Source: Candidatus Latescibacterota bacterium (GTDB lineage: Bacteria > Latescibacterota > UBA2968). Taken from it: a stretch of 64,000 bases of DNA. A model generated the notes under the pieces. It was not told the origin of the DNA, made no database searches, and worked only from the letters and a program-made list of their open reading frames with translations. The DNA lies in NCBI GenBank assembly GCA_965222605.1, contig OZ244960.1:1376001-1440000 (forward strand), read 5' to 3'. Shown here one piece after another: positions 570 through 18,378 of the stretch (positions within the stretch are counted from its first letter, which is position 1; every line of letters begins with the position of its first letter). Both the position numbers and the translations under genes were made by a program.

Positions 570-920
570 ATGTCAAAAATCACCATCTACCACAACCCCA
601 ACTGAAGCAAATCCAATGGCGCAATGGACATTTTGCGCGCCGACAACGTCGAGTTCGACGTGATTGAATATTTAAAAACACCATTGAGCGAACAGGACCT
701 GAGAAAATTTCTCGCACTCCTGCCCGGTGAACCCAAAGACCTGATTCACCCCAGTTCTTTTGAAGACTTAGGACGCGACATGGATGACTACAATACGCCC
801 GATGCACTCATCGATTTGCTCCTGGAACACCCCGAAGTCATGAATCGCCCCGTGTGTATTCGCGGGGACCGTGCAGTCATTGCCCGTCCCTCAGAAGCCG
901 TGCATGAACTCCTCACTTAA
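570..920 (+). CDS. arsC: ArsC/Spx-family arsenate reductase-like protein with in-frame TGA at the catalytic position (probable selenoprotein, 116 aa)
   Basis: RBS AAGGAG then ATG570: MSKITIYHNPN-TGA(603-605)-SKSNGAMDIL..., in frame with ORF 624-920. YHNPxCSKS, EYLK, NRP and ARP ArsC motifs are present and the TGA sits at the catalytic Cys position. Confidence 0.85.
607..641 (+). promoter_or_regulatory. Candidate bacterial SECIS element
   Basis: Stem GCGCAA(619-624)/TTGCGC(633-638) with loop TGGACATT starting 19 nt after the TGA and G at loop position 2. An alternative fold GCAAA-TCCA/TGGA-TTTGC (607-636) is also possible. Confidence 0.55.
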
Positions 921-922
921 AA

Positions 923-958
923 AAATAGCCGCCGAGACCTGAACCTCGGCGGCTATTT
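923..958. terminator. Bidirectional intrinsic terminator
   Basis: AAATAGCCGCCGAG-acctgaac-CTCGGCGGCTATTT perfect inverted repeat between convergent arsC and aldolase genes. Confidence 0.85.
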
Positions 959-17289: not shown

Positions 17290-18378
17290 ATGATCACCTA
17301 CGACACACTCGGCGTAAAACCATTTATCAACGCGAGTGGCACCATTACCACACTCGGCGGTAGCTTAATGCCAGATGAAGTGCTGGAGGCGATGTGCGTG
17401 GCGGGAGGGTCATTTGTCGATTTGAACGACCTGCTTGTAAAAGCAGGTGAATATCTGGCAAAACGCATTGGCGTACCTGCGGCCTTTATTTCGTGTGGCG
17501 CCGCCAGCGGTGTACAATTATCCGCTGCGGCGTGTTTGACAGGACCTGACATAACAAAAGCGCGCCAGTTGCCACATACACAGGGATGGAAAAACGAATT
17601 TGTAATCAGCCTGGTCGATAGCCATACGTACATCCATCAGGGCATTGAAGTCTGCGGTGGCAAACTCGTGCGGGTTGGCAGCGAACATGCGGTAACCAGT
17701 GAAGACCTCATTGGCGGAATCGGTGAAAAAACAGCGGCTGTGGTACATTTCCTGGGCAAACAGAGCAAAGAACAGCTTGCAGAAATCATTGTCGGCGCCA
17801 AAAAAAAAGGCGTACCCGTCATGGTAGATGCGGCTGCACAGTTGCCTCCCCGTTCAAACTTAACCGAATTCGTCGAAATGGGCGCAAGCCTGGTGACATT
17901 CAGCGGCGGCAAAGGATTGTGCGGGCCTCAAAACAGCGGTCTGGTCGTGGGCAAAGAGGATTACGTAGAAGCCGTGCGGATCAATGCGAGTCCACATTCG
18001 GCCATTGGACGCGGCATGAAAGTAGGCAAAGAAGAGCTCCTGGGATTAATCGCGGCTGTAGATCTGTTTTTGAGCCGAAGCGATCGCGAAGATCACCAGC
18101 GCTGGCACGGACAAGCTCGCGTTGTCGTAGATGCGGTCAAACATATCGCAAACGCTTATGTGATGACCGAAGGACAGGACGCCGCGCCCGAGTTCGCGCC
18201 GCGCGCATACATAGACCTGCCGGATGAACAGCGCGATGCCGTGATACATGCATTAAAAGAAGGCGAGCCGTCAATTGTCGTGCGGCGAAGTGCCAGAGGG
18301 ATTTTGATCGACCCGATGACCATGCAAATGGGTGAAGAGGCCGTAGTCGCTAAAAAATTGCAGGAGGTATTGACATGA
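17290..18378 (+). CDS. SelA-like PLP-dependent enzyme (DgaE / D-glucosaminate-6-P ammonia-lyase-like)
   Basis: INASGTITTLGGS, VDAAAQ, FSGGKGLCGPQ, IGRGMKVGKEE; 362 aa, lacking the N-terminal domain of true SelA. Confidence 0.85.
   Translation: MITYDTLGVKPFINASGTITTLGGSLMPDEVLEAMCVAGGSFVDLNDLLVKAGEYLAKRIGVPAAFISCGAASGVQLSAAACLTGPDITKARQLPHTQGWKNEFVISLVDSHTYIHQGIEVCGGKLVRVGSEHAVTSEDLIGGIGEKTAAVVHFLGKQSKEQLAEIIVGAKKKGVPVMVDAAAQLPPRSNLTEFVEMGASLVTFSGGKGLCGPQNSGLVVGKEDYVEAVRINASPHSAIGRGMKVGKEELLGLIAAVDLFLSRSDREDHQRWHGQARVVVDAVKHIANAYVMTEGQDAAPEFAPRAYIDLPDEQRDAVIHALKEGEPSIVVRRSARGILIDPMTMQMGEEAVVAKKLQEVLT

Follow-up and report, generated by a model that had tools for sequence, protein, structure and literature searches.

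Two families of selenocysteine (Sec)-containing proteins have been described under the name of arsenate reductase. The text of the Sargasso Sea selenoproteome includes 'arsenate reductase' (COG1393) among its new selenoprotein families, with 14 sequences, and refers to a predicted SECIS element in its Figure 3 (PMC1088965). This family has been listed since 2005/2008 as 'Arsenate reductase (ArsC) 1', with a UxxS motif and the assignments pfam03960, COG1393 and TIGR00014 (PMC1088965, PMC2398784), alongside a second family, 'Arsenate reductase 2', with a UxxC motif (PMC2398784); both are repeated in the text of reviews (PMC9312934, PMC13188914). An earlier note on the DNA analysed here, made from the sequence alone, had stated that Sec-containing ArsC-like proteins were reported from marine metagenomes, and the 'ArsC 1, UxxS' family is the one to which this applies (PMC1088965). 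The canonical bacterial SECIS (bSECIS) model, as quoted in the text of PMC13188914 from Zhang & Gladyshev 2005, comprises a stem of 4-16 bp, a loop of 3-9 nt with a G in one of its first two positions, a distance of 16-37 nt from the UGA and a minimum free energy (MFE) of at most -7.5 kcal/mol. According to the same text, some bacterial SECIS elements depart from this model (PMC13188914).

The DNA analysed here is a 64,000-nt window of the closed, 6.34 Mb and 98.7%-complete genome of a Candidatus Latescibacterota bacterium. The plus-strand stretch 570-920 of this window forms a single gene with 116 codons before its stop, running from the ATG at 570-572 to the TAA at 918-920 and carrying an in-frame TGA at 603-605 as codon 12. 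A ribosome-binding site (RBS), AAGGAG (557-562, +), lies 7 nt 5' of the start codon. The frame consists of 11 sense codons, the TGA and then an in-frame continuation into the ORF that a mechanical list of open reading frames starts at ATG624 (624-626, +), which is an internal Met at codon 19. Translated with TGA as U, the full coding sequence (570-920, +) yields a Sec-containing ArsC-family protein of 116 residues with the motif H-N-P-N-U-S-K-S, in which the TGA (603-605, +) is the predicted Sec codon of U-S-K-S (UxxS), as judged by column alignment to homologues and to Cys12 of R773 ArsC. The earlier note had proposed a good RBS, a start at ATG570 and a TGA read in frame into the ORF from 624, and this frame can be followed intact to TAA918. 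It had also held that standard callers truncate the gene and lose its active site. The caller ORF indeed starts at ATG624 and encodes 98 residues, and database proteins are cut likewise: 30 of the 31 best hits among public proteins (P0002-P0032) are 86-98 residues long and match 73-84% of the query, and the one full-length best hit shows Ser at the Sec column. The gene is therefore systematically truncated in public sets, with 30 of the 31 nearest database proteins lacking the active site, and because of this truncation function predictions and selenoproteome counts are wrong for UxxS ArsC proteins in Latescibacterota and their relatives.

The protein matches the Pfam family ArsC (PF03960, E 1.4e-10), and this domain together with U-S-K-S places it in the ArsC 1 (UxxS) family. 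As described in the text of the cited papers, that family likewise combines the ArsC domain with Sec in place of the catalytic Cys, has numerous Cys homologues and carries a stem-loop 3' of the UGA. The gene at 570-920 is thus an unannotated member of a known family, and its recognition is a correct re-annotation, not a discovery. It differs from the family as described in that text in its host, Candidatus Latescibacterota, which is not mentioned there (the term 'Latescibacter' has no occurrences in the BSepDB paper), and in that its clade has His60 and Cys96. The running text on the ArsC 1 family, as distinct from the figures, makes no mention of the distal hairpin described below. 'Arsenate reductase 2', or arsenate reductase-like (cd03032 / NF041106, UxxC), belongs to the same superfamily and has Sec in the same column; a member of this UxxC family in the same genome has its resolving Cys three residues after Sec, in Spx-like fashion, whereas the 570-920 protein has Ser there. 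Assignment to the Spx/MgsR regulators was rejected, the TIGR01617 model giving 41.6 bits against a cut-off of 75.05 and the motif being UxxS and not CxxC.

A close relative of known structure is the glutaredoxin-coupled arsenate reductase ArsC of plasmid R773 / E. coli, whose structures (1I9D, 1JZW) align with the 570-920 protein over its full length (E 5e-17). In this alignment U12 corresponds to Cys12, R93 to Arg94 and R106 to Arg107, so that the catalytic column and two arginines are kept, and His60 stands at Arg60. Unlike R773 ArsC, the protein therefore has Sec for Cys12, His for Arg60 and an extra Cys two residues past a Pro; it also lacks ars operon context, its genome yielded neither ACR3 nor ArsB, and its match to TIGR00014 falls below cut-off.

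To place the TGA in a comparative context, we performed a protein search of 61 genomes, comprising the window's own and 60 relatives, which returned a match in 57 of the 61. Orthologues at 62-99% identity were found in 31 genomes, including all 21 of the window's genus and members of five other genera (the genera concerned being g1, g2, g3, g6, g10 and g12). Every one of these orthologues has exactly one TGA inside the match, and the fetched DNA places it at codon 12 in 31/31. The weaker matches to the protein's own family (at most 46% identity) contain no stop in any case, and all nine distant homologues that were fetched have Cys in the TGA column, within the motif Y-H-N-P-[RK]-C-S-K-S. Eleven further Sec forms outside the 31 were identified in records of Gemmatimonadaceae, Binatia, Actinomycetota and Pseudomonadales, and the overall set comprised 41 distinct Sec and 74 Cys downstream sequences. 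Two loci whose motif pattern was unmatched were left out of the Sec/Cys hairpin, tree and MFE counts: L090, in which the residues at the motif follow another pattern, and L081, which has no in-frame N-terminus. The latter, a Thermoanaerobaculia record, still has the V-E-F-D-V region and its C-terminal part, with the N-terminal active-site segment out of frame, and may be a frameshifted or decayed Sec-ArsC.

We consider it very probable, on the strength of these comparisons, that 570-920 encodes a thioredoxin-fold ArsC-family reductase of the glutaredoxin (R773) type in which the nucleophilic Cys12 is replaced by a predicted Sec encoded by the UGA at 603-605. The claim that the TGA replaces the nucleophilic Cys of the ArsC motif agrees both with the alignment to Cys12 of R773 ArsC and with the Cys found in the nine distant homologues and the 74 Cys forms; the homologue alignment that the earlier note had called for thus sets TGA in 31/31 orthologues against Cys in distant homologues at the same column. 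In the proposed mechanism, SelB with Sec-tRNA(Sec) would be recruited at the UGA by mRNA structure just 3' of it, including the proximal hairpin at 619-638; Sec would be inserted at 603-605 and translation would then run to TAA918. A selenolate at position 12, aided by Arg93 and Arg106, could attack an oxyanion or a disulfide-type substrate, after which Sec12 would be recycled by a thiol reductant.

The proximal hairpin (619-638, +) is formed by GCGCAA (619-624) and UUGCGC (633-638), with a 6-bp stem and an 8-nt loop UGGACAUU. Its stem begins 13 nt and its loop 19 nt after the UGA, there is a G at loop position 2, and its computed energy is -9.5 kcal/mol, all of which lies within the canonical bSECIS model as quoted in the text of PMC13188914. 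The SECIS-like hairpin that had been proposed from the sequence is in this sense well formed: its GCGCAA/TTGCGC stem and G-containing loop are present, but the distance of 19 nt downstream that had been assigned to its start is that of the loop, the stem starting at 13 nt. Hairpins of this kind, taken as a stem of at least 6 pairs, a loop of 3-8 nt with a G in the first two places and a start 11-17 nt downstream, occur at 695 of 40,000 random genome positions (1.7%), and the strict hairpin test was passed by five of the nine selenoprotein genes of the genome. In the eight other TGA genes the distance from the UGA to the start of the hairpin is 12-16 nt, a geometry like that of the proximal hairpin; in selD, for example, a 7-bp stem starts at 13 nt and leads into the loop GGU. 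The sequence and register of the proximal hairpin drift between clades. Covariation in two registers was weak, with double changes at one and two pairs and no clear excess over shuffles, and this hairpin was absent from the consensus that RNAalifold computed for 18 diverse Sec forms across phyla. The fold of the wider 71-nt stretch 595-665 is unremarkable taken alone (z -0.84).

A second, distal hairpin lies at 646-661 (+), where ACGUCG and CGACGU form a 6-bp stem around the loop AGUU within codons 26-31 (N-V-E-F-D-V). From the UGA it is 40 nt to the start of the stem and 46 nt to the loop, which places the loop beyond the canonical 16-37 nt. Set against the canonical bSECIS model, it is hence the proximal hairpin that fits, whereas the element conserved across phyla is the distal one, which fails the spacing. 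Six of the 65 informative columns in the 31 orthologues use a single codon, namely H8 and the five consecutive columns N26-D30; codons 26-30 show no synonymous variation in these orthologues, and the adjacent Val, Glu and Asp codons vary freely. All six distal pairs form in 41/41 distinct Sec forms from five phyla, in which the loop AGUU is constant, compared with full pairing in 4 of the 74 Cys forms; among the 16 Cys forms displayed (5 or 6 pairs), none has the AGUU loop. Where the stem does change, pairing is preserved, through a GC-to-AU double change in L068 and GU wobbles in L051 and in L077/L078/L080. The distal helix was also the sole consensus structure returned by RNAalifold for the 18 diverse Sec forms from five phyla. 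At equal G+C, the 40 nt after the codon have a mean MFE of -13.2 kcal/mol in Sec forms versus -9.3 kcal/mol in Cys forms, a difference with a Mann-Whitney p of 6e-11, although relatedness among the sequences means that they are not independent; values of at most -7.5 kcal/mol were obtained for 41/41 Sec forms and 48/74 Cys forms. We conclude from these comparisons that both hairpins are linked to the predicted Sec decoding.

The same evidence raises the question of which hairpin carries the signal, the selenoprotein status of the gene not being in dispute. It may be that the distal hairpin, alone or as part of a bipartite element, is the recoding signal, with SelB docking at ACGUCG-AGUU-CGACGU, and that the main part played by the variable proximal hairpin is to compact the RNA in between and so bring the distal hairpin near the ribosome. 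We take this to be a serious possibility, if not quite a probable one. The synonymous invariance of N26-D30, the complete pairing and constant loop of the Sec forms, the substitutions that keep pairing and the isolation of the distal helix in the consensus all speak for it, as does the G-U step contained in the loop AGUU. Such a G-U step in the loop is the SelB contact in the SECIS elements of E. coli and Moorella. One Prx-like selenoprotein gene of the genome, moreover, has a proximal hairpin with the loop AGUUA. The position of the distal loop, 46 nt from the UGA where the canonical range is 16-37 nt, tells against such a role, and so does the finding that the eight other TGA genes, with hairpins 12-16 nt after their UGA, were not seen to have a distal element. 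The exact motif occurs twice in the genome, the second site without Sec context, which is not what a general signal would show. Part of the stem could, furthermore, come free with the peptide, the Val and Asp codons being reverse complements of each other, so that V-[DE]-x-D-V yields some of the pairing by itself, and the Sec forms may share one origin, in which case the 41 sequences are not independent.

The distal motif was also considered as a general SECIS consensus and rejected, one other 14-nt and two other 12-nt hits in the genome having no Sec context, and a full-text search for the 12-nt distal motif returned unrelated papers only. The distal hairpin is nevertheless a rare case of a sequence-conserved element that co-occurs with the UGA across phyla, in a field where bacterial SECIS elements are notoriously poorly defined. 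Given the published statement that not all bSECIS elements follow the model, the UxxS ArsC proteins may be a non-canonical SECIS case; if the distal signal proved to be required, they would provide a concrete instance of the 'distinct classes of bSECIS', said to exist yet undefined.

Sec insertion itself has to be weighed against the possibility that the TGA is a true stop, so that the locus would be a pseudogene or would make only the 98-residue product from ATG624. Gene callers and the public protein sets do give this short form, in 30 of the 31 best hits P0002-P0032, and TGA is the commonest stop of the genome. The conserved unit, however, extends upstream of the TGA: 31/31 orthologues, down to 62% identity, keep the TGA, the 11 codons that precede it, the N-terminal strand, the start codon and the RBS (an AGGAG/GGAG-like site 5' of the start in the orthologues displayed), and the Sec forms of four other phyla also keep the TGA, the preceding codons and the RBS. 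Residues T5, Y7, H8 and N9 are invariant in A2, a 12-row alignment of Sec forms, and codons 5, 7 and 9 vary synonymously among the 31 orthologues. The internal Met (the ATG624 column), by contrast, is present in only 19 of the 31 orthologues, so it is not the truncated ORF that is conserved; the product of that ORF would lack strand 1 and the residue aligned to Cys12. With a complete Sec machinery in the genome as well (see below), we judge a true stop very improbable. A sequencing error or a decayed copy, which the earlier note had named as an outcome that would count against its reading, is likewise not what was found, given TGA in 31/31 orthologues and in the 11 Sec forms elsewhere. Contigs from independent sequencing agree: in a DNA run of another study they extend over 300-715, with 0-1 differences, and in RNA libraries of two studies over 553-1235 and 450-914. 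The differences listed for these contigs include no change at 603-605, which is weak evidence in that it comes from contigs only and RNA libraries can contain DNA. In a further RNA run (X17), contig coverage was limited to 300-509 and did not reach the gene.

The genome encodes a full set of Sec genes, all above their curated cut-offs: selA (C1:1086447-1087787, 576 bits) adjoining selB (C1:1084528-1086408, 388 bits), selD (C1:3613020-3613943, 365 bits), in which the active-site column is itself an in-frame TGA, and, about 100 nt downstream of selD, tRNA-Sec (C1:3614049-3614142, 73 bits) with the anticodon TCA. The check for Sec machinery proposed in the earlier note thus finds selA, selB, tRNA-Sec (selC) and selD all present. 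Missing machinery was one of three outcomes that the note had named as contrary to its reading, and since none of the three occurred, the selenoprotein reading is supported. At least eight other genes have an in-frame TGA at a redox motif, namely selD, an ArsC-like UxxC paralogue and six Prx-like genes. The ArsC/Spx-like UxxC paralogue (about C1:6123373-6123720, -) has its TGA in U-S-T-C and is about 30% identical to the 570-920 protein; it was found with one TGA in 15 genomes of the same genus. One Prx-like gene, with TGA in U-G-C, precedes selD and tRNA-Sec in a Sec cluster on the plus strand (C1:3612286-3614142), and the five others lie at C1:113134, 2204268, 3554446, 3769407 and 4026340. 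A search of the genome for CMD/AhpD found no TGA-containing member. With at least nine genes that have an in-frame TGA at a redox motif, the genome is selenoprotein-rich, which bears on selenium use in a little-studied phylum. A weak match to the selA model within the window (17647-18081, C1:1393647-1394081; 41 bits, far under cut-off) is probably another PLP-dependent enzyme and not a second selA.

That the TGA is read as Trp, Gly or Cys through an altered code or near-cognate read-through, as the W of P0033 and the S of P0005 at the TGA column might suggest, deserves hardly any credence in a genome with a dedicated tRNA-Sec, SelA, SelB and SelD, where TGA is the commonest stop and ends 824 of 2015 long open frames, which implies the standard genetic code, and for a codon whose homologue column is Cys, the classic Sec/Cys pair, and which is followed by structured RNA only in its TGA forms. 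Both of these database relatives have the V-E-F-D-V peptide; the W of P0033 may reflect translation of a TGA with a different code table, and the S of P0005 may be a true TGA-to-TCA change or an artefact.

The function of the Sec-containing protein is a separate matter from its decoding. TIGR00014 (arsenate reductase, glutaredoxin) is the best NCBIfam model, and with C standing in for U the protein scores 88.5 bits against a cut-off of 106.05. The arginine triad Arg60, Arg94 and Arg107 of R773 ArsC is incomplete: R93 and R106 are kept, and position 60 is a His that is invariant in the 12 Sec forms of A2. Cys96, two residues after a conserved Pro, is nearly invariant in A2 and present in 30 of the 31 orthologues. 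The Sec forms of Binatia, Actinomycetota and Pseudomonadales have Arg at position 60 and lack Cys96. Searches of the closed, 98.7%-complete genome for ACR3, ArsB and pI258-type ArsC found none of these three; gshB (TIGR01380) was also not found in the genome, which has one GCS2-family ligase and one glutaredoxin-domain gene. The neighbouring genes encode a sulfatase C-terminus, an HpcH/HpaI aldolase, an aldo/keto reductase and an SDR, none of them arsenic-related. On account of His60, the sub-threshold TIGR00014 score, the failure to find ACR3, ArsB, pI258-type ArsC and gshB, and these arsenic-unrelated neighbours, 'arsenate reductase' is to be read as a family label and not as a demonstrated function. 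Going by the sequence, we commit to a predicted selenolate-based thiol/oxyanion reductase; arsenate is a possible substrate, though a doubtful one that is not favoured over others. That a genome in which no arsenite pump was detected has a Sec-ArsC also calls the 'arsenate reductase' label of the family itself into question.

Taking decoding and function together, we offer a tentative proposal that, as a whole, we hold to be rather doubtful. The UxxS ArsC family would use a non-canonical, possibly bipartite signal, in which an invariant 16-nt hairpin is required for Sec insertion; this hairpin, conserved at the synonymous level in at least five phyla, would even dictate the V-E-F-D-V peptide, and the proximal hairpin would serve as a folding spacer. 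The Latescibacterota/Gemmatimonadota clade, marked by His60, mostly by Cys96 and, in the window's genome, by the lack of a detectable arsenite pump, may in addition use a non-arsenate substrate, with Cys96 resolving a selenenylsulfide.

A quick SH-aLRT tree, for which the Sec/Cys column was masked, was inferred for 116 distinct proteins. In it, a single subfamily (SH-aLRT 98) unites every one of the 42 Sec forms with 15 Cys forms, and the 59 classical Cys forms lie outside it. Within this quick tree, one origin of Sec and several (Sec/Cys switches) were not separable.

The flanks of the gene were inspected as well. A promoter scan of 300-1100 found no sigma-70-like promoter, and an Rfam scan of 540-980 gave sub-threshold chance hits only. 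A simple terminator scan reported a terminator-like hit on the reverse strand of the proximal hairpin, in our view by chance, and missed an intrinsic-terminator-like hairpin at 923-958 (+), immediately 3' of the stop codon, which has a 14-bp stem followed by UUUCU. This hairpin has a computed energy of -25.2 kcal/mol (z -8.73), with folds as stable in 0 of 200 shuffles, and separates the Sec-ArsC gene from the convergent HpcH/HpaI aldolase gene. At the other end of the gene, synteny breaks at about position 553, just 5' of the RBS, with two alternative upstream sequences among same-genus orthologues, and contigs from other runs diverge before 553-554. Because of this break, the Sec-ArsC gene with its RBS and terminator appears to act as a small portable unit.
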